A DNA stretch of 64,000 nt from an uncultured candidate division Zixibacteria bacterium (GCA_963711085.1 CAVQCT010000002.1:263592-327591); one strand, 5' to 3'; shown: positions 26,911-44,600, counted from the stretch's first letter. The notes: generated by a model not told the origin, from the sequence alone. A program made the numbers and translations.

Positions 26911-27849
26911 ATGTCTCGCTTGCTTCGGACAGGAATTGTCTCAGCATTTCTTCTTATGATCCTGGCGACTGCCGCAGCGGCCGCGGAATTACGCATCCAA
27001 ACCGAGCCCCACTTTTCCTCGAACTGCTATGACTCTCAGGATTCTGCAACGATATCCCTCTCGGACCTTTCCGTTCCGATCAGCGGATTTCGCCTGGCCC
27101 TTGGAATCGAGGGAGCCAGCATCTTATCGCTCAAAGTCGAACCGGGGTCGTTCTTGCAGGATTGTCAATGGGAGTATCTCACCTGGCGTCTGACCCGACC
27201 GGAATCGATCGCCCAGCTGCCTCATCGGGGTAGCCACGTGACTGCTGTCCTGGAGATCACGGGCCTGGCCACCGTCTCGGTGTCACATGTCCCGGCGTGC
27301 AACACCGCCCCCGGGTCGCTCGATCTCGTGAACCTCACTTTCCTCCTGGCGACATCGGATCAGGAAAATCGATGTGCTTTCCTTCCGCTACGATTCTACT
27401 GGCGGGACTGTGGGGACAATGTACTCTATTCGGCAAGCAGTGATACGGTCTATGTGGCCGATCAGGTCCTCGACTTGTCTCTCACGCCCGGCGCACTTAC
27501 GGCACCCTTTCCCGGATTTGGCGCTCCGGCGGACCAGTGCGACTCATCGACCGGCAAGCCTCACGTTCCGATGTTCACAGCGGTCAACGGCGGGTTCGAT
27601 CTGGCCTGCATAGACTCCGGGTCCTGTGCCGGGGATTTGAATCTCGATGGTACTTCTTTCGGAGTGGATGATCTCATCATGTACGTCAACTACTTCAACG
27701 TTGGCGTCAGCGCCTTTGGCGTCCATATTGCCGCGAGTGTGGCCCAATCGGACATTAACGGCGATGGCCGGACTCTGACTCCGGACGATCTCATTCTGAT
27801 GGCACGAATTGTTTTCGGTGACTTTACGCCACCAATCAGTCTGCGGTAG
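26911..27849 (+). CDS. Secreted cohesin-like plus dockerin-like protein
   Basis: Signal peptide; beta-sandwich with WEYLTWR and LRFYWRDCGDN; GDLNLDG...DL and SDINGDG...DDL dockerin repeats. Confidence 0.7.
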   Translation: MSRLLRTGIVSAFLLMILATAAAAAELRIQTEPHFSSNCYDSQDSATISLSDLSVPISGFRLALGIEGASILSLKVEPGSFLQDCQWEYLTWRLTRPESIAQLPHRGSHVTAVLEITGLATVSVSHVPACNTAPGSLDLVNLTFLLATSDQENRCAFLPLRFYWRDCGDNVLYSASSDTVYVADQVLDLSLTPGALTAPFPGFGAPADQCDSSTGKPHVPMFTAVNGGFDLACIDSGSCAGDLNLDGTSFGVDDLIMYVNYFNVGVSAFGVHIAASVAQSDINGDGRTLTPDDLILMARIVFGDFTPPISLR

Positions 27850-29425: not shown

Positions 29426-31858
29426 ATGCTTCGTATCAAGTTCGTGGCACTCATTCTTCTGGGCGTGGTTTGCGCGTTCGCATCCGTTGCCCTGTCTAGC
29501 CCAATGCTGTTCTCACATCAAGGTCGAATTCTCGACGGCACCGGGCAACCGCTTAACGGTGTGGTCCCGATCAAATTCTCCCTGTTTGACTCCTCCTCCG
29601 ATGGGGTGGAAGTCTGGACCGAGACGCATCAGGCCGTGACCGTCACCGACGGCCTGTATTCGGTGCTTCTTGGCTCCGTTACCCCGCTTTCTGCGGATCT
29701 GTTTGCCGCTCCCCCTTCCAGCGGAGCCGCTCAGCACGATTTATATTTGGAAATTGAAGTCAACGGGTCCGTCCTGTCGCCCCGCAGTCAGATTATATCG
29801 ACACCGTACTCCGCGGTATCCACCAGAGTGGACGGGGATTTGCAAACGGGGCCAGGTATGCTTCGGGTCGACTATCTCGATCCCGATGACGATGGAGACG
29901 GCCTCTTGTTCAACGACGACCTGGATAGCTCTGTCCTTGCACTGAGCGAGAAAGACGGCCTCGGGGGGAGCAACGCGCTTACCTATAAGTTTTACCAGCC
30001 GGGACAACCGCAATATGGCAATATCGTTTTTGAACACAGCAGTTCCGGACAGCCGCCTGACACGTCTTACCAATTTGATGTTCGAGCCGACGCCAGAATA
30101 GAGAAGTTCAACGTAAAGGAGAGTTTCGGTCCGTCGCATGGCACCAAGAGCTCGAGGCAGGGAGTGACGGACAGCGCAGGGTTTGTCGATGCCTCCTCAT
30201 CGGACGGAATGGACAGCAGCAGTGCAGTTATGAGCGCAGGCGTCGACCGGTCGGTTCTCAAGAATTATTTTGAAACCGGCGATGTCCCCACCGAATCACA
30301 GTTCGGGGTTATCTCGGACACCGCCGTCATCTCGCTTTCGCACAATACCGACGCCGGCAACATCGATTGCCGGGTGACTCCGGAAGTATCTTCGGTGGCC
30401 ATCAAGACTAAGGGAACGGGTGCCGATCCCAACCGGGTCGTCTCAATCTCGTCCAGCGCCAGTGATTCGGGCGTTATCGATCTGAGCCTGGATGACAACG
30501 GTAACGGGTCCGCCAAAGCTCGCGGGATAATTTCGGTTAAGGCTTCTACCGGTGTCGGAAGCGTCACGAGTCGGATGACTACGGATAATAACGAAAATGG
30601 CAACCCTGAGTCCGAGGCCCTGACCACGGTGACGGCCGACTCCATTCTCGACGTTCTTGAGAGCGACAGTGACGATGACGGCGTCGCAGAAGTGAGCGAC
30701 AAAAGAAAAATCATCGCAGGAACATTTTCCGGTGGCCCCGGAACAGTCAATCTGCGAGTTGTAGATATCGACGGTGACGGCGTCCCGGAAAGCTCCGATG
30801 AAACCCGGCTTCTGGCTCACGAAGTCACGCATACTGTTCAGCAAAAATCAGGCTCCGGTGTTGAACAACGGACAATGACTTCGGAGACTACCTCAGACAC
30901 GTCCGGCGTATCATCCGAGATGAGAGTCAACAAAGGTATCAATGAACAATTGCCATACGCAACCCTGAGAACCAGTGTCTCAACTCAGTCGCTCGTTTGC
31001 GCTGCCGGACTGGACATCGATCAGGATGGAAATACGGACGTGTCGGCGACAGAGAAGGTATTGCCATCCGGAGCTTCTCATTCGATCGTTTGGAACTCGT
31101 TAACGGACCCTGGCGTCAGTCACAAGCTGCGGCTCGAGGCTGATAGCGCAAAGTCGGAGCTCGTGAGCAGCATCGATCTGGATGGCGACGGCTTGTCGGA
31201 TGTGGCCACGAGCGAAACCTGTACCGCCGATTCGGCATCTCAGGAGACATCGTTCGATTATCCCAACGCCCAGACCCCGTCATCCACCTCCAGTGCCCGG
31301 GTGACTGCCAATCGGAAGAAATGCCTTACGAGTAATTTCCATTTGAGTCCCTTATCTCGAACCGAAGCTTCCAGCACCTGCGATTCCACAACCTCCAGCT
31401 CCTCCTGGACCGCGGATGATTTTAGCGGCGCTCTGGCCTCTCTCACGATTCAGGTCAGTACCGATACGACCCTCAATCCGATCCAGCATTCTTCGGGCGC
31501 GCATCTCACCCCCGGTGGGGATTGGACCAATGCTTCCGACGTGAATCGTAAAGAGAATTTCGAGCCGGTTGACGGTGATGATCTTCTCAAGAAAATCGAG
31601 TCACTCGATATCAGTGAATGGAATTACAAATCCGAGTCTGATGACGTCAAGCACATTGGTCCGACTGCCCAGGATTTCAAAAAGACTTTCGGCGTCGGTT
31701 CCGACGGCAAATCTATCTCGACGATAGATCCTGCCGGTATAGCCCTGGCCGCGATCAAGGCGCTTAACGAAAAGAGCAAGAAAGTAGATGAGCTTGAAGC
31801 AAAAGTGAATGAACTTACCGCTCTGGTTGATAAACTGGTGAGCGAGCAGAAAAAATAG
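29426..31858 (+). CDS. Secreted fibre-like protein with C-terminal peptidase S74 intramolecular chaperone domain
   Basis: Signal peptide; QGRILD...WTE...TPYS N-domain; SDVNRKENF...WNYK...HIGPTAQDF plus coiled coil; DxDxDG repeats. Confidence 0.88.
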   Translation: MLRIKFVALILLGVVCAFASVALSSPMLFSHQGRILDGTGQPLNGVVPIKFSLFDSSSDGVEVWTETHQAVTVTDGLYSVLLGSVTPLSADLFAAPPSSGAAQHDLYLEIEVNGSVLSPRSQIISTPYSAVSTRVDGDLQTGPGMLRVDYLDPDDDGDGLLFNDDLDSSVLALSEKDGLGGSNALTYKFYQPGQPQYGNIVFEHSSSGQPPDTSYQFDVRADARIEKFNVKESFGPSHGTKSSRQGVTDSAGFVDASSSDGMDSSSAVMSAGVDRSVLKNYFETGDVPTESQFGVISDTAVISLSHNTDAGNIDCRVTPEVSSVAIKTKGTGADPNRVVSISSSASDSGVIDLSLDDNGNGSAKARGIISVKASTGVGSVTSRMTTDNNENGNPESEALTTVTADSILDVLESDSDDDGVAEVSDKRKIIAGTFSGGPGTVNLRVVDIDGDGVPESSDETRLLAHEVTHTVQQKSGSGVEQRTMTSETTSDTSGVSSEMRVNKGINEQLPYATLRTSVSTQSLVCAAGLDIDQDGNTDVSATEKVLPSGASHSIVWNSLTDPGVSHKLRLEADSAKSELVSSIDLDGDGLSDVATSETCTADSASQETSFDYPNAQTPSSTSSARVTANRKKCLTSNFHLSPLSRTEASSTCDSTTSSSSWTADDFSGALASLTIQVSTDTTLNPIQHSSGAHLTPGGDWTNASDVNRKENFEPVDGDDLLKKIESLDISEWNYKSESDDVKHIGPTAQDFKKTFGVGSDGKSISTIDPAGIALAAIKALNEKSKKVDELEAKVNELTALVDKLVSEQKK

Positions 31859-37521: not shown

Positions 37522-38505
37522 TCACCCTAACCGATTTATCTCTCTTTCCAATTCGCGGACGGAATCCATTATCTCTTCCAGAGGAGGGGTGCTACCGAAT
37601 ATCATAATCCGCATGTCGCTATAATCCGTTTTAAGTTGTCGCTGAATGTGAGCAGGAGGGACCAACTTGATAGTCTTTGGAACAGCCAAATTATAGCGGG
37701 CCCACTTTTGATAGTAGAACTTCTTTTTAAACTCAACTACTTGTTTCAGCAACTCTAAGTCCTGCAGTGCTCTCTCCTTGATCTCTGACTTTGCCAACTT
37801 CATAATGTCATAGTAATGACGAGAGTGTCTTTCCTTCACCGATTGTGTCTTAGTTCGATGAGCTTCTACATGAAGAATTGTTACTTTCTCCCAAAAGGTC
37901 CTTTCCGCCTTAATTGCCCGAACACTTACTTGTGATGATTTGAACATTTCGGGAGCCGACTTGGCCGCGTACGGAGTTATTGTGTAGCTTCCATGAGGTT
38001 CCCATGCTGCCAAAGGTCCTGTCTCTAAAAGAACTTCGGGGCGAACATATGCTTCCTTAAATGCAGCAGGATACTTGACTATAATAGACAATGCTCGGTC
38101 GGTGTCGATTCTCGCCTCACAAATTGGCTTAATGCGCGAGTTAAGCAAGGGTACAAAGTGACTTTCCAAATATTTATTGGCTGCACTGTTGACCTTTTTA
38201 TTGAATCTAGTCTGCTGCGTGTTGGATCTAATTTCATATGGAGGCTCATGCACAAATTCAGACCAGTCGAGGATCAGGTCTATATCCTCAGAAAACCTTT
38301 CTATTACGTCAAATATCTTGGACAAAGTAGTCCCACCTTTAAACAGTATTTTCTTGTCAAGCTGTTTGGTAGTAAACAGCTTTTCCAAGGTCCAACAAAC
38401 CCAAAAGTCCTTTTCAACAAGTACTGCTGGTATACCACTCTTTGTTTCTGTAAGCTTGAAAAGATCTTTTCGATCATCTGGCGATACTGAGGCGATCTTG
38501 TCCAT
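37522..38505 (-). CDS. abiEii: AbiEii/AbiGii-family nucleotidyltransferase toxin (type IV TA)
   Basis: VEKDFWV, FKGGT.LSK, RFSEDIDL, ERTFWEK, RHYYD. Confidence 0.92.
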   Translation of the reverse strand: MDKIASVSPDDRKDLFKLTETKSGIPAVLVEKDFWVCWTLEKLFTTKQLDKKILFKGGTTLSKIFDVIERFSEDIDLILDWSEFVHEPPYEIRSNTQQTRFNKKVNSAANKYLESHFVPLLNSRIKPICEARIDTDRALSIIVKYPAAFKEAYVRPEVLLETGPLAAWEPHGSYTITPYAAKSAPEMFKSSQVSVRAIKAERTFWEKVTILHVEAHRTKTQSVKERHSRHYYDIMKLAKSEIKERALQDLELLKQVVEFKKKFYYQKWARYNLAVPKTIKLVPPAHIQRQLKTDYSDMRIMIFGSTPPLEEIMDSVRELEREINRLG

Positions 38506-39111
38506 CTAGTCCTCTCTGCAAATTTCTCGTATCGAATCGTAGATCCAACCCGAGACTGTGTTGGTGTCCTTCAAAATAAGTAATTTCAGCGAAGGATCTA
38601 GCCAGCGGCGAATTTTATTTAACTTCTCCTGAGAAATCCGTTCTTTCCCTAACGACTTCAGTGCCTGAACTATGATCGCACTCTCGTGATGCTTGAAGCC
38701 AATTTCCTTTGTAGTCGAATTCCGAAATACTAAGCTGACTTTTCCGATTTCATAGGTACGATCAGGTCCACTCGAACGATATAGATACTTTCCCACGACT
38801 TGTGTGGACAAGCCGATCGTATTCAAGGCAGCAGGACCACTCGGTTCGATTTCCCATTTGAATTTGCGAGCCAATGCTTGCGCGACTTGATCAACGTCTG
38901 GCCCCAATTGCTGATTCAAGGATTTACTGAATCCCGGATAGTCATAGATTCCACGAATAACTCTTCTAATTTCGCCCTTTTCACAGAGCGTGTGCAAAGC
39001 GACGTCGATGGAAGCACGGGTTCCAATAGTGGAAAAGTCTGTCCGAGAGAAAGCCCATCCCCTGCCCTTGCCGTATATTACCTGGCTTATTTTTCTTTTC
39101 ACGCTTCTCAT
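38506..39111 (-). CDS. abiEi: DUF6088/AbiEi-family antitoxin
   Basis: Winged helix (IRRVIRGIYDYP), GPAALN.IGLSTQV; abuts the toxin gene. Confidence 0.88.
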   Translation of the reverse strand: MRSVKRKISQVIYGKGRGWAFSRTDFSTIGTRASIDVALHTLCEKGEIRRVIRGIYDYPGFSKSLNQQLGPDVDQVAQALARKFKWEIEPSGPAALNTIGLSTQVVGKYLYRSSGPDRTYEIGKVSLVFRNSTTKEIGFKHHESAIIVQALKSLGKERISQEKLNKIRRWLDPSLKLLILKDTNTVSGWIYDSIREICRED

Positions 39112-40907: not shown

Positions 40908-43900
40908 CTATTGACAAGGTACCGGAGCCGAACCGTTACTAAAGGAGTAATCAACGAGATAAATGAGGTCCGTAACGTCTATGGTCTTATCGCCGTTGAC
41001 GTCTCCTTCTTCTTCGCAAAGTGGCGCGGACCCACCAGAAAACGAATAGTCGACCAGATAGATCAAATCGGATATGTCCACGCTACCGTCACGATTAACA
41101 TCACCTCGTACGTCACAGCAACCCGGTTCCATCTCGTTGGGGAGATTTAGTGTGTCGTCCGGTTCACCAGACATGTCCGAATCAACTAGTATCATAATTG
41201 AATCTCCATGAGTACGCCAGTCCGGAACGATACTCTGTGAGCTGGTAGCTGCTATATTTATTCCGCTATGGTAGAAGACTGTGTCAATTGTGTTGTTGGT
41301 GATTTGCACGCGTAAAGAATAACTCGTCGTGGGGCCAAAATTGTCTACTTTGAATTCAGATCCAGTCGACAAAGAAAATCGAATTGAATCACCTGGGGCA
41401 GATGAGATATTCTGTGCCTCGCATACTATTTCCGAATCGGGATGAATGTCAATTATCTGCATAGAATAGCGACTTTCGCCTGAATTCTGATTGGAAACCG
41501 TAACCATGCTATCATTTCCCGGATAGGCGAGAGACACCACTCCACCTAGCGACATACTAGAATCAGTGTACTTCATCACAGTTGAATCAGTCACGAGTGT
41601 GAGAGTGAAAGACGTATCGCTTAAGTCTGTGGCATGGATAATCCAACGGTCATTCGGAAGGTAATATCCGATTGGAGGAGTTTCTTGTCCCGTGAGCGGA
41701 ATAATCGGCATACCATCCGCAAGATCGTCAAACAAGGAATCTCCTACGAGACCTATGTTGCCATTGGGAGATTCGAGGGCTAACGTGCCAGTCGTGGGCA
41801 GATAGATTTCAATATGTTCAGAGGCACTTCCATTCTTCTCATTTGACAAATGACCATGCGACGGATCAGTTTCCGATAGGATAGGGGACGATTCGTAGTC
41901 TGACACAGGACCCATCAAGAAAAGATGCTGGCTCCCACCCCAACCTGACAGTCTATCGTATGACCATGTATTACTGCTTGTATTTATGGCAATTCGGCAT
42001 GTAAAATCATTGGGATAGTTGTTGTCATATACATAAATGTAGTATATGTTGGAATTCGATTGATCTGGTTCACATCGGTATGGCACCACCGCATGGCCAC
42101 CTGAGCCATGGTTGTTATAGAGAACTAATACACGATCATCGCGCGGTGGGGCCGAGGACTGAAACATCTCCTGACAGTCAGCTAGAGTTTGACTTGAGGT
42201 TGAATAATTGTAACCCTCGTTTGAGTACTGCTGTTGTGTCTCTCCGAATTGGTAAATCCAGTACTTATTAATAGTTTTGCGGCTCTCATCGTTAATGGGA
42301 ACACCGTACAAATTCGACGCACCAGGGAACTCAGATGCTAACGACAGATATCCATCAAAGAACAAATCTGCTGCGACCGCGAATCCGAAGCATGATCCAC
42401 CCCAAGCGCCCTTAATTCCTAGCCATTTGGCAATAGCCGATGGTCTGTAAATAATTAGACCAGGTGGAGGGTCAAAGTAACACTGGCTGGCACCAAAGGC
42501 ATCGACAAACAAGGGCCAATCTGGAAAGTCCGATGGTGAACACACAAATCGCCAGCTTGCCGGATATTGGGAACTGGTATAGTCGAATTGCCCCCACCAC
42601 GACTGCGGCCACATGTTATTCAGGCAATTACAGAATTGCCAACCATCCGGGTTCGGTCTCGCGCCCAAGTCTCCACATGCTGTAGGTCCCGAATTCGGAT
42701 CGTAGATATGGTAAGTATGCGGGCCATCCCAACGAGGAAAGGCGTCTGGGCCCGTCCACTTCCAACGCCCCGTTGGTCGATAGAAACCAGAATCAAGAAT
42801 GATAGTCTTACCGTTATATTGAGAATCAATTGGGCCAATTGTAATTTTATATGCTACGGAGTCGAAGCCCGGGGGCAATCCCGTGCTCCCACCCGGCAGA
42901 TAACTTCCACCAAAGCCTACTGTATCCGAGTAGCAGCCGGGGCCGAACTTAGAGATTTGAAAGATAAGAGAGAACCACTGTTTCCAATTCAACGGCAGCG
43001 TATCTGCGACGGTTGAACCCCAGCAAGCGACATCAAGGTCAGGCCAATCATGGGAATGGATACGGAATCCATTTGTCATTCCATGATGGCTCATGCTATC
43101 ACTGATTAGCCGAATCCAAAAAGTGATCAATTGGCCGGTGGGGATGGTGTCAGGTGCGTAAAGTCCATCAACATGATCAAGAGAAATTGAAGGAAGCGCG
43201 ATGTCAAAATCTGCGGTCATGCCTATGCCTGGGGAGGAGATGTTGCCGATCGTAGTTCTGGTCGTTTCGCCAGCATAGCTTCTAGTGTTGGGGACTGTGC
43301 TGTCGGAGAATTCTGTTTGGGTAAAAGTAGACCAGACATCAGTACTATCTCCCAGATTTAGTCCTTCTTGGAGGTCTAATCGACCGTCGGCCTGCATGAC
43401 TCCGAGCAACGGGTGATTTTCGTCCGTATTGTCGTTGACACCTTCGTCGACATGGAAGATGAGCAGACCTGATCCTGGGATTCCAATATCATGGCCCACT
43501 TTCTGGCGGTTTTCGACCAAGAAGTACTCGTTGCCTGTAATTCCACGTCTCCAAAGCCTGTAAGCGACCGGATTGTGTATACTTGCTGGGATCGTAAGGC
43601 CCGGCGCGCCGGAGGAAATATTATTGGGAGTCAAGAAACCCAATTGCTTTTTACACCAAGCATCCAAAAACGCAGGATATCGCCCGGAATAGTTCCAGCT
43701 GCCGGAAGACATGAGTGACCAGTCGCCGATTCCTGACGACGAATAGTCAGGGTCATACAAATCGGGTAGGCCAAGAAAGTGTCCGTATTCATGACAAAAC
43801 ACACCGATGGTGATAAGACCCACACCCTGGAGTTCTTCTGGTTCTGTTGTATATCCTTGGATATCAACCCCATCCAAATGCATAGTATAACTGGTTGATC

Positions 43901-44600
43901 CGAAGTGTGACCAGATCATATCAGTTAGCCCTGTTTGTTCTGCACCAGGTCCGGCGTGTACAATAAAGATCCCGTCGCACCAGCCATTGCCGTCATTGTC
44001 AAACTGTGAAAAGTCAACTAACGGATCGGCGAGAGTTATTGCGTCTTCAACCATGCGTTGAGCATTGTGCGGGTAATTTCCAAGACCGTTATCATTGTTG
44101 ACATAGTATGCGTACGTCTGTGGTAGCCGGAGCCATCCGATAACTGTTCCATTGAGATGAAATCGATCGTAAGAATTATCGTCATAAAATTCGGTCATCG
44201 AGTATTGTCCGTCGGCGCTGTCATCCGAGAAAAGAAGATTCTGGAAGTCTGCCGGCTGACCGTATAAGTCACCAGCTGAAGCGGGGTTATCTGAAAAGTC
44301 GACCAGGAGGACCAACACATTGAAAGTATCGGGTGCCGTTCTTTGTGAAAGCGCTTCATTCGGCGCAACTTTCGAGTCATAATATGCCGGTGCTGCACGA
44401 TCTATCCCCTTGGCTCTTGCAGCCTTTAGTCGCTCGATCAGAGCGTTAAGCTTGCCAGAGGCTTTGAGTTTGAGAACAAGATCTGGTGATGGTGGCATAG
44501 CTTTAGCTGTCGAGTGACAAAACTGCAAACAGATCAGAATAGTCACCGCTAAGAGCTTCGACACTTGTTGATACCGAGGAGTTGAAACAGCATATCTCAT
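40908..44600 (-). CDS. M6 (immune inhibitor A) family metalloprotease with C-terminal dockerin
   Basis: Signal peptide, AMPP prodomain, HAG.GAE, HEYGHFLGLPDLYD, WSLMSSGSWN, EYFLVENR; GDVNRDG...DISDLIYLVDY twice. Confidence 0.93.
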   Translation of the reverse strand: MRYAVSTPRYQQVSKLLAVTILICLQFCHSTAKAMPPSPDLVLKLKASGKLNALIERLKAARAKGIDRAAPAYYDSKVAPNEALSQRTAPDTFNVLVLLVDFSDNPASAGDLYGQPADFQNLLFSDDSADGQYSMTEFYDDNSYDRFHLNGTVIGWLRLPQTYAYYVNNDNGLGNYPHNAQRMVEDAITLADPLVDFSQFDNDGNGWCDGIFIVHAGPGAEQTGLTDMIWSHFGSTSYTMHLDGVDIQGYTTEPEELQGVGLITIGVFCHEYGHFLGLPDLYDPDYSSSGIGDWSLMSSGSWNYSGRYPAFLDAWCKKQLGFLTPNNISSGAPGLTIPASIHNPVAYRLWRRGITGNEYFLVENRQKVGHDIGIPGSGLLIFHVDEGVNDNTDENHPLLGVMQADGRLDLQEGLNLGDSTDVWSTFTQTEFSDSTVPNTRSYAGETTRTTIGNISSPGIGMTADFDIALPSISLDHVDGLYAPDTIPTGQLITFWIRLISDSMSHHGMTNGFRIHSHDWPDLDVACWGSTVADTLPLNWKQWFSLIFQISKFGPGCYSDTVGFGGSYLPGGSTGLPPGFDSVAYKITIGPIDSQYNGKTIILDSGFYRPTGRWKWTGPDAFPRWDGPHTYHIYDPNSGPTACGDLGARPNPDGWQFCNCLNNMWPQSWWGQFDYTSSQYPASWRFVCSPSDFPDWPLFVDAFGASQCYFDPPPGLIIYRPSAIAKWLGIKGAWGGSCFGFAVAADLFFDGYLSLASEFPGASNLYGVPINDESRKTINKYWIYQFGETQQQYSNEGYNYSTSSQTLADCQEMFQSSAPPRDDRVLVLYNNHGSGGHAVVPYRCEPDQSNSNIYYIYVYDNNYPNDFTCRIAINTSSNTWSYDRLSGWGGSQHLFLMGPVSDYESSPILSETDPSHGHLSNEKNGSASEHIEIYLPTTGTLALESPNGNIGLVGDSLFDDLADGMPIIPLTGQETPPIGYYLPNDRWIIHATDLSDTSFTLTLVTDSTVMKYTDSSMSLGGVVSLAYPGNDSMVTVSNQNSGESRYSMQIIDIHPDSEIVCEAQNISSAPGDSIRFSLSTGSEFKVDNFGPTTSYSLRVQITNNTIDTVFYHSGINIAATSSQSIVPDWRTHGDSIMILVDSDMSGEPDDTLNLPNEMEPGCCDVRGDVNRDGSVDISDLIYLVDYSFSGGSAPLCEEEGDVNGDKTIDVTDLIYLVDYSFSNGSAPVPCQ

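Follow-up and report, generated by a model that had tools for sequence, protein, structure and literature searches.

A secreted S74 fibre protein of a Zixibacteria bacterium with a stalk of short peptide cassettes that include fragments of other protein families

Introduction

S74 fibres, MAT-type adhesins and the shuffling of domains in fibres are already known. Members of the S74 subgroup of the MAT fibres of Bdellovibrio bacteriovorus have, in the available part of their description (PMC10769870), a signal peptide, an S74 domain with the SDxxxK motif as defined there, a variable middle region and a chromosomal, non-phage gene. Among phage receptor-binding proteins, unrelated proteins share fragments, most strongly in tail fibres and spikes, according to the available text of PMC10684548. 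The tail fibres of contractile injection systems (eCIS) carry N-terminal baseplate-anchor domains, eBAP1-5, and eBAP2, which is ~50 aa long and occurs in Bacteroidota, is also found together with S74 (PMC12923769, in the portion available).

Here we analyse a gene of an uncultured candidate division Zixibacteria bacterium, located in a 64,000-nucleotide stretch of DNA (the window; GCA_963711085.1 CAVQCT010000002.1:263592-327591). The original prediction, made from the sequence of the window, took its product for a secreted S74 fibre bearing seven isolated peptides, several of them captured from injection-system proteins. In the literature searched, we found no description of a fibre stalk whose sub-domain cassettes come from one common vocabulary, of such cassettes corresponding to conserved stretches of 17-26 residues from tube, Hcp, DUF4157, pseudopilin and kinase proteins, or of fragments of this kind in genomes where our searches gave no above-cut-off match to the source families.

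Results

Architecture of the fibre and its relation to described systems

The open reading frame encodes a protein of 810 residues, P0001, with the following parts.

29426..31858, + strand: whole open reading frame, 810 aa and stop codon; S74-chaperoned secreted fibre
29426..29497, + strand: predicted Sec signal peptide, ~aa 1-24, recognised by inspection from its basic start and hydrophobic core; helix at residues 2-23 in the AF2 model
29498..29830, + strand: beta-rich, MAT_N-like N-domain, ~aa 25-135; NF053851 match below cut-off, pLDDT 80-91
29846..31222, + strand: modular stalk, aa 141-599, DxDxDG loops alternating with peptide cassettes
31223..31534, + strand: conserved C-terminal stem, aa 600-703, ending in ...GGDWTNA; invariant residues and predicted beta-hairpins
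31535..31858, + strand: S74 intramolecular chaperone/autoprotease (PF13884), aa 704-810, with S704 and K709, followed by a coiled coil

Both the reading frame and the predicted order of parts, an N-domain, a Ser/Thr/Asp-rich scaffold with DxDxDG turns and a terminal S74 domain, proved correct, and all seven quoted peptides lie at exactly the positions originally given for them. P0001 has 57 strong homologues of 499-922 aa and belongs to a fibre family of at least 96 proteins, the majority from Zixibacteria MAGs; cassette maps were built over the 57 and later over the 96 proteins, and 30 homologues were aligned. The PF13884 (Peptidase_S74) match covers aa 704-755 (E 2.9e-11, 43.9 bits against a cut-off of 22), and the SDxxxK motif reads S704-D-V-N-R-K709, with S704, D705 and K709 invariant in the 30 aligned sequences. 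In the stem, G691, A692, G697, W700 and N702 are invariant in the same alignment.

The N-domain, kept in 30/30 aligned homologues, scores 27.1 bits (E 3e-6) with NF053851 (Bdello_MAT_N) over aa 15-88, where 60 bits are required, and the match is confined to profile positions 3-78 of 162, that is, to the first half of the profile. Twelve frames of the genome contain this domain (17-40 bits), and 0/14 control genomes match. Middle regions differ between these paralogues; the genome encodes three S74 proteins, and no S74 match was found in the further N-domain frames. The genome holds a multi-gene repertoire like that of MAT fibres, with variable middles and with or without S74, in which a MAT_N-like N-domain of ~130 aa is shared by 12 frames as against 21 in B. 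bacteriovorus (PMC10769870, available part). P0001 differs from the MAT fibres in that its N-domain reaches 27 bits against the 60 required and over the first half only, and in that its host is a Zixibacteria-type organism that is not a known predator. Its stalk consists of DxDxDG modules and cassettes, whereas that of MAT fibres is a beta-helix with tip domains, and sub-domain fragments of tube, pilin and DUF4157 proteins are not described in the available part of the same source (PMC10769870).

With phage S74 tail fibres and spikes of the endosialidase type, P0001 has in common an above-cut-off S74 domain, the catalytic Ser and Lys, a coiled-coil tail and PHROG tail-fibre matches (phrog_1980, aa 475-805, E 2.2e-16). 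In contrast to these proteins it is encoded outside any phage or eCIS locus, has a Sec signal peptide and lacks an N-terminal baseplate anchor. The neighbouring genes encode a cupin, PEP mutase, ICMT and a SpoIIE-type phosphatase, a chromosomal, non-phage setting, with no recombinase, reverse transcriptase or mobile-element genes among them. As had been predicted, the window contains no eCIS locus, and the genome (97% complete) likewise has no eCIS and no PF06841 protein, its only eCIS_core match above cut-off being the P0001 gene itself. P0001 does not qualify as an eCIS or phage tail fibre: its genome has no tube gene, it is not encoded in a contractile-tail locus and its anchor motif is internal.

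Calcium-type loops and predicted structure of the stalk

Residues 141-690 are rich in Ser (16.5%), Asp (10.2%) and Thr (9.5%), and DxDxDG-type loops occur at aa 152/154, 356, 387, 414, 447, 530 and 584. Such loops match FG-GAP, FG-GAP_3, TSP3_bac and EF-hand profiles; in P0001, FG-GAP reaches 24.1 bits against a cut-off of 22.1, and FG-GAP_3 14.2 against 26.9. The loops are like those of FG-GAP, TSP3 and EF-hand proteins, but no propeller fold was recovered for the stalk. In the AF2 monomer model, aa 130-510 fall below pLDDT 50 and the beta-hairpins of the stem have pLDDT 70-85. For the paralogue on contig C6, the stalk is predicted as 7 modules of 4 beta-strands each (pLDDT 70-85), with an R-type cassette as a predicted helix. 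Foldseek comparison of the P0001 monomer model with the PDB returned nothing at E <= 1e-3 and only beta-barrel look-alikes of TM <= 0.19; the paralogue model gave no propeller and matched beta-ribbons of teneurin, ApoB and LptD (TM 0.04-0.24), which say nothing of quaternary structure. Homotrimer prediction with three copies of aa 440-703 gave 0.00, 0.89 and 0.00 in its runs, a result that speaks neither for a trimer nor against it.

A family-wide vocabulary of cassettes

The cassettes and quoted peptides of the P0001 stalk are as follows.

aa 149-159, + strand: DYLDPDDDGDG, one of the calcium-type loops
29984..30034, + strand: cassette D2, YKFYQPGQPQYGNIVFE, with the PG..YGNI motif, aa 187-203; same type in 7/96 family proteins
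30098..30133, + strand: cassette Q, IEKFNVKESFGP; aligns with the P0171 tail and is present in P0002 too
30248..30304, + strand: cassette E, RSVLKNYFETGDVPTESQF, with LKxYFETGD, a fibre/tailspike N-terminal repeat motif, aa 275-293; AF2 helix at 275-284
30389..30439, + strand: cassette A, SSVAIKTKGTGADPNRV, with AIKTKGTGA, aa 322-338; standard repeat of the family
30521..30562, + strand: cassette L, RGIISVKASTGVGS; 16 copies across 10/96 family proteins
30776..30853, + strand: cassette O, aa 451-476, fragment of DUF4157/eCIS_core (PF13699), including LLAHEVTHTVQQ
30806..30844, + strand: quoted peptide RLLAHEVTHTVQQ, aa 461-473, the HExxH piece
aa 502-510, + strand: NKGINEQLP; aligns with a degenerate copy of another family cassette
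30920..30973, + strand: degenerate cassette R, MRVNKGINEQLPYATLRT; aligns with the RLNELENKLINIGLLRT cassette of P0052
31067..31102, + strand: degenerate cassette A, SGASHSIVWNSL, aa 548-559; in register with TTSSVAIKTKGTGA of homologues at alignment columns ~1215-1235

Throughout the family, DxDxDG loops alternate with short cassettes from a common vocabulary of at least 19 types. The commonest, cassette A, is present in 261 copies in 83/96 proteins, seven of them in the paralogue on contig C6, and counts are lower for E (17/96), D2 and the R type (7/96 each) and O (3/96). Cassette O of P0001, also found in L010 and L021, takes the slot that cassette A holds in P0010 and P0027. The Q region (aa 212-241) is 42% identical over 31 aa to the tail of P0171 (E 2e-5), which there stands after two LKxYFxTGD motifs, and the D2 cassette of P0001 adjoins pieces of the fibre-anchor repeat.

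The seven quoted motifs are thus family-wide cassettes in module slots and not private insertions, and between paralogues and between orthologues the cassettes have changed places, multiplied and decayed. This speaks against the proposal that P0001 had captured snippets of its own: SSVAIKTKGTGADPNRV is the standard repeat, NKGINEQLP and SGASHSIVWNSL align with degenerate copies of two other family cassettes, and DYLDPDDDGDG is a calcium-type loop.

Fragments of other protein families

Judged by sequence comparison, some cassettes are true fragments of other families, 17-26 aa long (15-25 by another of our estimates), and these foreign fragments of ~17-26 aa sit in defined slots beside DxDxDG loops. 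By contrast, the units shared between phage proteins are domain-sized in the available part of PMC10684548, whereas here they span 17-26 residues and come in part from proteins other than fibres (tube, Hcp, pseudopilin, kinase and DUF4157). Most cassettes, the dominant one included, have no detectable outside relative.

Within P0001, cassette O matches PF13699 above the Pfam cut-off, at 24.6 bits in the whole protein and, when 55 aa were searched alone, at 29.9 bits with E 6.5e-7. The LLAHExTHxVQQ core is therefore present above the gathering threshold, with its HExxH as H465-E-V-T-H469 inside LLAHEVTHTVQQ, and, as originally claimed, it comes without the rest of the domain: the match is limited to profile positions 52/53-78 of 79, so that only 26-27 of the 79 positions are there and P0001 has no complete DUF4157 domain. 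In the phylum sample, 17 other genomes have full-length domains that start at profile positions 1-12 and run to 76-78, whereas the match of P0001 is a partial one in an 824-aa frame. Against PDB sequences, the HExxH piece returned only weak C2H2 zinc-finger repeats with each stretch under 5 bits, and these were set aside.

Cassette E, searched as a piece among 1.84 billion representatives, found 43 proteins at E <= 1e-3. Its LKxYFETGD motif, which had been likened to the N terminus of fibre-type proteins, is a true motif and is N-terminal in P0196, a tailspike-like beta-helix protein, as well as in P0198 and P0201; the motif also stands at the N terminus of small proteins and in tandem arrays in Rhs C-termini. 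P0163 has seven tandem copies. In P0001 the motif is internal (aa 275-293), in contrast to P0196.

The PG..YGNI peptide of P0001 had been identified as a gp19-like tube motif, an assignment that the searches did not support; it belongs to a cassette type present in 7/96 relatives. Neither the piece (aa 174-223) nor the whole protein matched PF06841 at E <= 10, and a domain search with the tube HMM that included P0001, P0017 and P0010 gave, of these three, reportable domains in P0017 and P0010 only. Short queries placed the HExxH and LKxYFETGD pieces beyond chance, but PG..YGNI, AIKTKGTGA, NKGINEQLP and SGASHSIVWNSL each had no Pfam family at E <= 10.

P0001 itself shows no recognisable part of a gp19-type tube; its homologues do contain tube fragments. 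Cassette D1 is identical at 17/17 positions to P0162 (PF06841, gp19 tube), its sole outside match among 34 candidates. Cassette I aligns with tube HMM positions 76-99 as a second tube fragment and is identical at 14/18 positions to a Zixibacteria tube; it had first been likened to an Rhs YD repeat, a reading that was dropped. Among 2008 real stalk windows scored with the tube HMM, at least 22 outscore the best of 10,040 shuffled windows. When the 2008 windows were compared by blastp-short with 692 frames of six Zixibacteria eCIS-containing regions, 10 windows matched the tube better than any shuffled window did, and no other frame, sheath and baseplate included, rose above that maximum.

Further fragments in homologues come from other sources. 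In a database of 5.8e9 proteins the F cassette has 104 matches, with E between 3e-5 and 1.6e-2; they include 72 PF07963/PF07596 pseudopilins (DUF1559), of which 55 are 92-100% identical over 24 aa, reaching 24/24, and the other 17 are at 63-89%. A kinase-loop cassette matches the tyrosine-kinase catalytic loop in Pfam (E 9.1e-5), and its top matches among PDB sequences are all receptor tyrosine kinases (E 1.8e-4); an Hcp motif is present in L036 (E 4.8e-4). In homologues the injection-system pieces are thus beyond doubt for the gp19 tube (17/17), the second tube fragment and Hcp, and pseudopilin and kinase are sources too. When 355 stalk pieces other than A were taken from 34 relatives and scanned without bias, only 6 pieces of 4 proteins matched foreign families (eCIS_core 2, kinase 2, Hcp 2); the scan overlooked the pilin and tube cassettes and so has low sensitivity. 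When 56 homologues were compared in full length with Pfam at E <= 0.1, the tube, pilin and kinase fragments escaped notice, and the weak HATPase_c matches on DxDGDG-PE loops are regarded as spurious.

Other likenesses did not hold. Pfam, the genome itself and PDB sequences gave no match for cassettes H and M, which had been likened to HU and RRM motifs, and both likenesses were dropped; cassette A matched histone H1 among PDB sequences at E 3, which was treated as chance, and cassette B found nothing there. Some of the same peptides were seen on unrelated proteins: P0149, an unrelated secreted scaffold, carries pilin and Hcp pieces, the pilin piece recurs in the SdrD_B-like proteins P0152 and P0153 (133 aa), and in P0179 DxDGDG loops alternate with the fibre motif, a piece that looks Hcp-like by eye and a tube piece of 23.9 bits (cut-off 28.2).

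Age of the cassettes

The fraction of identical codons at identical residues is 0.31-0.56 in cassettes and 0.42-0.45 in the S74 core and stem; synonymous sites are saturated, and the cassettes are as diverged as the S74 core. A synonymous divergence close to that of the S74 core means that the cassettes are old and selectively maintained, and saturation leaves no pointer to recent acquisition. Of 5 genomes bearing tube-type or related cassettes, none has a tube gene above cut-off, and across 201 genomes of the phylum, judged by the best six pilin loci, no pilin bearing the F peptide came to light. The P0001 gene has no repeat-spacer DNA structure, only a 21-nt direct-repeat pair encoding the loop and minor inverted repeats, and no sign of an acquisition mechanism was seen.

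Discussion

The account that we favour, and hold with some confidence, is that the gene product leaves the cell by the Sec route and forms a cell-surface fibre, probably a homotrimer, whose cassette stalk includes ancient foreign fragments that arose by illegitimate recombination. Trimer formation, surface display and adhesion are what we infer for such a protein, which would most likely be an adhesin or recognition fibre. The beta-rich N-terminal domain, common to ~12 paralogues, would presumably be the cell anchor, and the S74 domain presumably drives trimerisation and then self-cleaves at Ser704. The stalk consists of ~50-residue modules, each a DxDxDG calcium-type loop with short hairpin or helix cassettes, and a minority of cassette types are ancient sub-domain fragments of other proteins. 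P0001 has the DUF4157 HExxH helix and pieces of the fibre/tailspike N-terminal repeat; its relatives have two hairpins of the gp19 tube, the Hcp motif, a helix of DUF1559 pseudopilins and the catalytic loop of tyrosine kinases. Illegitimate recombination may have brought them in mostly while ancestral fibre genes sat in phage or eCIS tail loci, and they may then have been retained as structural or binding elements of the stalk. Against this account weigh the MAT_N match, which is below cut-off and confined to the first half of the profile, the low pLDDT of aa 130-510 and the absence of a detectable outside relative for most cassettes. An origin in tail loci also leaves the pseudopilin and kinase fragments unexplained, and exact identity of 17-24 residues across phyla seems to exceed what a structural filler needs.

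Alternatively, the fibres may display copies of interface or active-site peptides of other organisms' machines (hairpins of contractile tubes, the Hcp motif, the baseplate-anchor motif of fibres, the DUF4157 helix and the pseudopilin helix) and, as mimics or decoys, bind, block or dock with them, in defence against injection systems and phage tails or for attachment to the appendages of neighbours. Contractile-injection components make up 4/6 recognised sources (gp19 tube, Hcp, DUF4157 and the fibre N-terminal motif), cassettes match their source exactly or nearly so across 17-24 aa although synonymous sites are saturated, the source families have no above-cut-off match in the carrier genomes searched, and the same peptides are grafted onto unrelated secreted scaffolds (P0149, P0152, P0153 and P0179). 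Yet the catalytic loop of the kinase and the HExxH helix belong to active sites and not to interfaces, once tubes and pili are assembled little of the complementary surface is left free, most cassettes, the dominant one included, have no outside counterpart, and the D2, R and A-like cassettes of P0001 itself are degenerate; we regard such functional mimicry as unlikely. Somewhat less likely still is its bolder form, in which the widespread fibre family and some unrelated giant secreted proteins would be calcium-loop racks. They would bear exact copies of short, strongly conserved peptides taken from the tubes of contractile injection systems, from Hcp, fibre anchors and toxin-marker domains and from pseudopili of other organisms, and selection would keep these as mimics that jam or bind the machines in question.

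The diversity of sources, their lack of above-cut-off matches in the carrier genomes searched, and the narrow size of the fragments (~17-26 aa) in defined slots beside DxDxDG loops could also suggest a continuing capture, a kind of memory as in the original prediction, by which an active mechanism places pieces of foreign genes into fibre-gene slots. We give this very little credence: distant family members share cassettes whose synonymous divergence equals that of the S74 core, the 21-nt loop-encoding pair is the only notable direct repeat in a gene without repeat-spacer DNA, no recombinase, reverse transcriptase or mobile element adjoins it, and a single type dominates with 261 copies, unlike an array of unique spacers. 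Equally improbable as a general explanation is that the likenesses are accidents of a plain, diverged repeat protein, as the Pfam-negative PG..YGNI piece of P0001, the failed HU and RRM likenesses of H and M and the histone H1 match of AIKTKGTGA at E 3 might suggest. Identities of 24/24 and 17/17, a Pfam match above its gathering score, a kinase loop that finds tyrosine kinases only (E 1.8e-4) and real windows that outscore all 10,040 shuffled windows argue otherwise. At the level of sequence comparison, chance is refuted for cassettes O, E, F, D1 and I, the kinase loop and the Hcp motif, and stands only for cassettes that lack a positive test.

Whichever role the fragments have, the MAT-like fibre repertoires are extended to a non-predatory candidate phylum. 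If the fragments are structural only, they show how far below domain size protein mosaicism reaches, and they call for caution in annotation, as a graft of 20 residues may be all that lies behind a DUF4157, tube, Hcp or kinase match. As functional mimics, they would represent a new kind of inter-bacterial interaction, a peptide-mimicry layer of defence or attachment.

Domain Organization of the Fibre Protein

The protein under study, P0001, is encoded by the following reading frame.

29426-31858, + strand: open reading frame of P0001, an S74 fibre protein of 810 residues

Its N terminus resembles a Sec signal peptide by inspection, and its N-domain, modelled with confidence (pLDDT 80-91), matches the N-domain of the mosaic adhesive trimer (MAT) fibres of Bdellovibrio at residues 15-88 with 27.1 bits, under the 60-bit NCBIfam cut-off. 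Searching the whole protein against Pfam yielded Peptidase_S74 at residues 704-755 (E 2.9e-11), eCIS_core/DUF4157 at residues 451-476 (24.6 bits against a cut-off of 22, profile positions 53-78/79) and a marginal FG-GAP match, and a tail-fibre PHROGs family covers residues 475-805. The SDxxxK motif, the catalytic signature of S74 according to the MAT paper (PMC10769870), is formed by Ser-704, Asp-705 and Lys-709 and is invariant across 30 homologues. The original prediction described a Ser/Thr/Asp-rich scaffold with DxDxDG turns, a description that holds for residues 141-690 (Ser 16.5%, Asp 10.2%, Thr 9.5%) and for loops at residues 152/154, 356, 387, 414, 447, 530 and 584; all seven peptides that it quoted were found where it had placed them. 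In the predicted model, residues 130-510 have a pLDDT below 50 and the C-terminal stem (residues 510-700) consists of β-hairpins at pLDDT 70-85.

A Family Built from Peptide Cassettes

Among 5.8 billion proteins searched, 57 proved to be strong homologues, 499-922 residues long, the few named ones being from Zixibacteria, and the titles of 74 fibre loci in the genome collection were mostly Zixibacteria/Zixiibacteriota with some Ignavibacteria(les). When the homologues are aligned, their ends are conserved and the middle consists of repeating units, in which a DxDxDG loop is followed by a peptide of ~15-25 residues, here called a cassette. Cassette types were set by simple patterns and mapped first in the 57 and later in 96 non-redundant family proteins.

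Occurrence of cassette types among the 96 proteins
A, AIKTKGTGA: 83 (261 copies)
C, IGSSGxDG: 31
E, LKxYFxTG: 17
B: 15
F, pilin-like: 12
J: 11
D1, I, L and N: 10 each
D2, G and R: 7 each
H and M: 6 each
O, HExxHxVQQ: 3 (P0001 and the fibres of loci L010 and L021)

Several of the quoted peptides belong to this common pattern. SSVAIKTKGTGADPNRV is the standard repeat of the family, cassette A, of which a paralogue on contig C6 of the same genome has seven copies; these are predicted by AF2 at pLDDT 70-85 as 7 x 4 β-strands, so that each module would comprise two hairpins and a loop. In the alignment, SGASHSIVWNSL lies in register with the standard repeat as a degenerate copy, RLLAHEVTHTVQQ fills a slot held by cassette A in P0010 and P0027, and NKGINEQLP sits within a degenerate R cassette; DYLDPDDDGDG is one of the DxDxDG loops. 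P0001 is a fairly degenerate member of its family. Whole-protein Pfam searches of the homologues also gave recurrent weak HATPase_c matches on DxDGDG-PE loops (E 1e-4 to 0.04); this likeness to the ATPase G1 box is probably spurious and could lead to mis-annotation.

Resemblances to Proteins outside the Family

Only some of the cassettes have a real resemblance to outside proteins. As originally predicted, the DUF4157 core occurs in P0001 without the rest of its domain: a 55-residue HExxH piece scored 29.9 bits (E 6.5e-7) over profile positions 52-78 only, and diverged versions are present in L010 (E 3.9e-4) and L021 (E 4.1e-3). Of 201 genomes sampled from the phylum, 19 contain DUF4157 matches at E <= 0.001, that of P0001 among them; the domain is full-length in 17 of the 18 others, and the match of the P0001 gene is partial. 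With a 44-residue LKxYFETGD piece of P0001 as query, a set of 1.84 billion representatives yielded 43 proteins at E <= 1e-3, including further S74 fibres and five proteins with Rhs repeats. Four of these five have the motif near the C terminus, and the fifth, P0163, contains it seven times from mid-protein to near the C terminus. Elsewhere it is N-terminal, for example in P0196, a protein with a β-helix body annotated by PHROGs as tail fibre or spike, in keeping with the original reading of it as a fibre N-terminal motif. In P0171, the segment after the motif is matched by residues 212-241 of P0001 (E 2e-5), with the order permuted, and residues 187-300 of P0001 therefore resemble parts of a single repeat module rather than the independent captures that had been proposed.

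The reading of PG..YGNI as a tube motif failed for P0001 itself, whose piece gave no PF06841 match at E <= 10. For the D1 variant of the homologues, PF06841 was the sole Pfam match (E 0.26), and in a large database the PF06841 protein P0162 was the only outside match among 34 candidates, with 17 consecutive residues identical. An HMM built from 30 Zixibacteria tube sequences placed D1 at tube positions 41-58 and cassette I at 76-99, in the order of the tube. Against this HMM the family's stalk beat the shuffled controls, at least 22 of 2008 real 50-residue windows exceeding the best of 10,040 shuffled ones (7.3 bits; top real score 16.7). In a comparison with 692 frames from six regions that contain an eCIS, cassette I was identical to a tube at 14 of 18 residues and was alone above the shuffled maximum, which D1 (33 bits) did not exceed; no eCIS protein other than the tube was matched by the stalk in these frames.

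Cassette F matched 104 proteins at E <= 10, fibres among them. The others included 72 pseudopilins with PF07963 and/or PF07596 (E 3e-5 to 1.6e-2), 55 of which are 92-100% identical over 24 residues (24/24 in P0076). The F peptide is also embedded in the unrelated scaffolds P0149, P0152 and P0153. P0149, a secreted protein of 1554 residues, combines the pilin 24-mer with an Hcp fragment (PF05638, 26.3 bits), and P0152 and P0153 (133 residues each) are small, SdrD_B-like and carry the pilin peptide as an insertion. In another unrelated secreted protein, P0179 (3453 residues), DxDGDG loops alternate with the fibre motif, with a piece that looks Hcp-like by eye and with a tube piece that scores 23.9 bits for PF06841, under the cut-off of 28.2. 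Two further kinds of peptide were located in S74 fibres of other bacterial loci.

L021 fibre, residues ~340-365, and L015:8223-8402: HRDLAARN-type tyrosine-kinase catalytic-loop peptides (Pfam E 9.1e-5 and 4.5e-3, respectively)
L036:3467-3745: 12-residue Hcp-motif peptide of TYDKASPxLAKR type, three tandem copies in the stalk (E 4.8e-4)

The best PDB-sequence matches of the L021 piece were all animal receptor tyrosine kinases (E 1.8e-4). An unbiased scan against Pfam, covering 355 non-A pieces of the stalks of 34 relatives at E <= 0.05 or E <= 0.02 depending on the run, assigned a foreign family to only six pieces in four proteins, an undercount because it did not recover the pilin and tube cassettes; the remaining pieces matched families of calcium loops or isolated weak ones, or had no match.

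Age of the Cassettes and Their Source Families

As a measure of age, we used the frequency of identical codons where two copies of a cassette share an amino acid. The fraction was 0.44 for I, 0.41 for O, 0.40 for E, 0.31 for D1, 0.56 for F (3 copies) and 0.53 for D2 (two of its three copies from near-identical proteins), resembling the S74 core (0.42) and stem (0.45). The cassettes are thus as old as the fibre core, with the peptide under selection, and have not been exchanged in recent times. The P0001 gene contains no repeat-spacer DNA structure.

No source family was found over cut-off in the carrier genomes searched, and none of five genomes with tube-type or related cassettes in their fibres (completeness not known) had a tube gene over cut-off. 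The genome of P0001 (97% complete) lacks a gp19-type tube gene, and its sole eCIS_core match over cut-off is the P0001 gene. Tubes occur in 19 of the 201 sampled phylum genomes and in none of three from the genus of P0001. In the 201 genomes, the only 71-89% matches to the pilin segment fall in frames of 810-869 residues, a length like that of these fibres; those native pilins of the phylum that were examined differ at this segment.

Genomic Setting

P0001 is flanked by ordinary chromosomal genes (cupin, PEP mutase, ICMT-like methyltransferase and SpoIIE-type phosphatase). Zixibacteria are not known to be predators. The genome has three S74 proteins (P0001, the C6 paralogue of 981 residues and a protein of 568 residues) and 12 frames with a MAT_N-like N-domain, every one under the NCBIfam cut-off; none of 14 control genomes gave a match.

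C2:234904-237042, C6:189958-190980, C6:71752-73395 and C2:595570-596727: examples of the MAT_N-like frames (about 12 on contigs C2, C5, C6 and C7)
L087:881-2587 (contig C2), ~129 kb upstream of the window: third S74 protein, 568 residues, same N-domain as P0001; middle of short NT-rich repeats, YadA-head-like by eye

Frames sharing this N-domain differ in their bodies. According to the MAT paper (PMC10769870), the MAT layout is a signal peptide, a conserved N-domain of ~130 residues, a trimeric fibre and S74 or other tips, and B. bacteriovorus has 21 paralogues, a gene set of which this fibre/adhesin repertoire is reminiscent. Other genes in the window are as follows.

26911-27849, + strand: secreted protein of 312 residues just upstream of the fibre region, C terminus dockerin-like by eye, no Pfam match at 1e-5
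37522-39111, - strand: AbiEii nucleotidyltransferase toxin (E 8e-36) and DUF6088 partner (E 3.8e-32), a type IV toxin-antitoxin/abortive-infection pair
40908-44600, - strand: M6 (immune inhibitor A-type) peptidase, 1230 residues, C-terminal dockerin

The AbiEii/DUF6088 pair lies in a GC dip (0.41-0.47, window 36-42 kb), which suggests an island.

Possible Origin and Role of the Cassettes

On balance, we favor the view that P0001 belongs to a MAT-like repertoire as a secreted S74 fibre whose modular stalk consists of inherited cassettes, some of them ancient pieces of other proteins, smaller than a domain, that were co-opted. Such fragments would have been gained by illegitimate recombination while ancestral fibre genes sat in contractile-injection loci, which supply four of the six recognized cassette sources; this origin leaves the pilin and kinase pieces unexplained. 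That the resemblances arose by chance is very improbable given the E values of the DUF4157 piece, the F cassette and the L021 kinase piece, the 17-residue identity of D1 with P0162 and the real stalk windows that exceed every shuffled one. Ongoing capture of peptides is hardly more credible, with codon divergence in the cassettes equal to that of the core, no recent exchange and a P0001 gene free of repeat-spacer DNA.

The displayed peptides might instead act in mimicry or as decoys, a putative role, judged from sequence, that we regard as unlikely. It would fit the exact matches to source peptides, the conservation of these peptides, the searches of carrier genomes that yielded no source family and the presence of the same peptides as grafts in the unrelated secreted proteins P0149, P0152/P0153 and P0179.

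Mosaicism at the level of domains is already described (PMC10684548), and catalogues of eCIS fibres, including eBAP anchors, exist (PMC12923769). The portions covered of the literature on MAT fibres, DUF4157/contractile injection, Zixibacteria tail fibres and mosaic tail-fibre motifs gave no description of a sub-domain cassette mosaic, a point on which full texts and supplements could bear. The interest of co-opted, inherited cassettes lies in the family-wide phenomenon that P0001 exposes, more than in P0001 itself.
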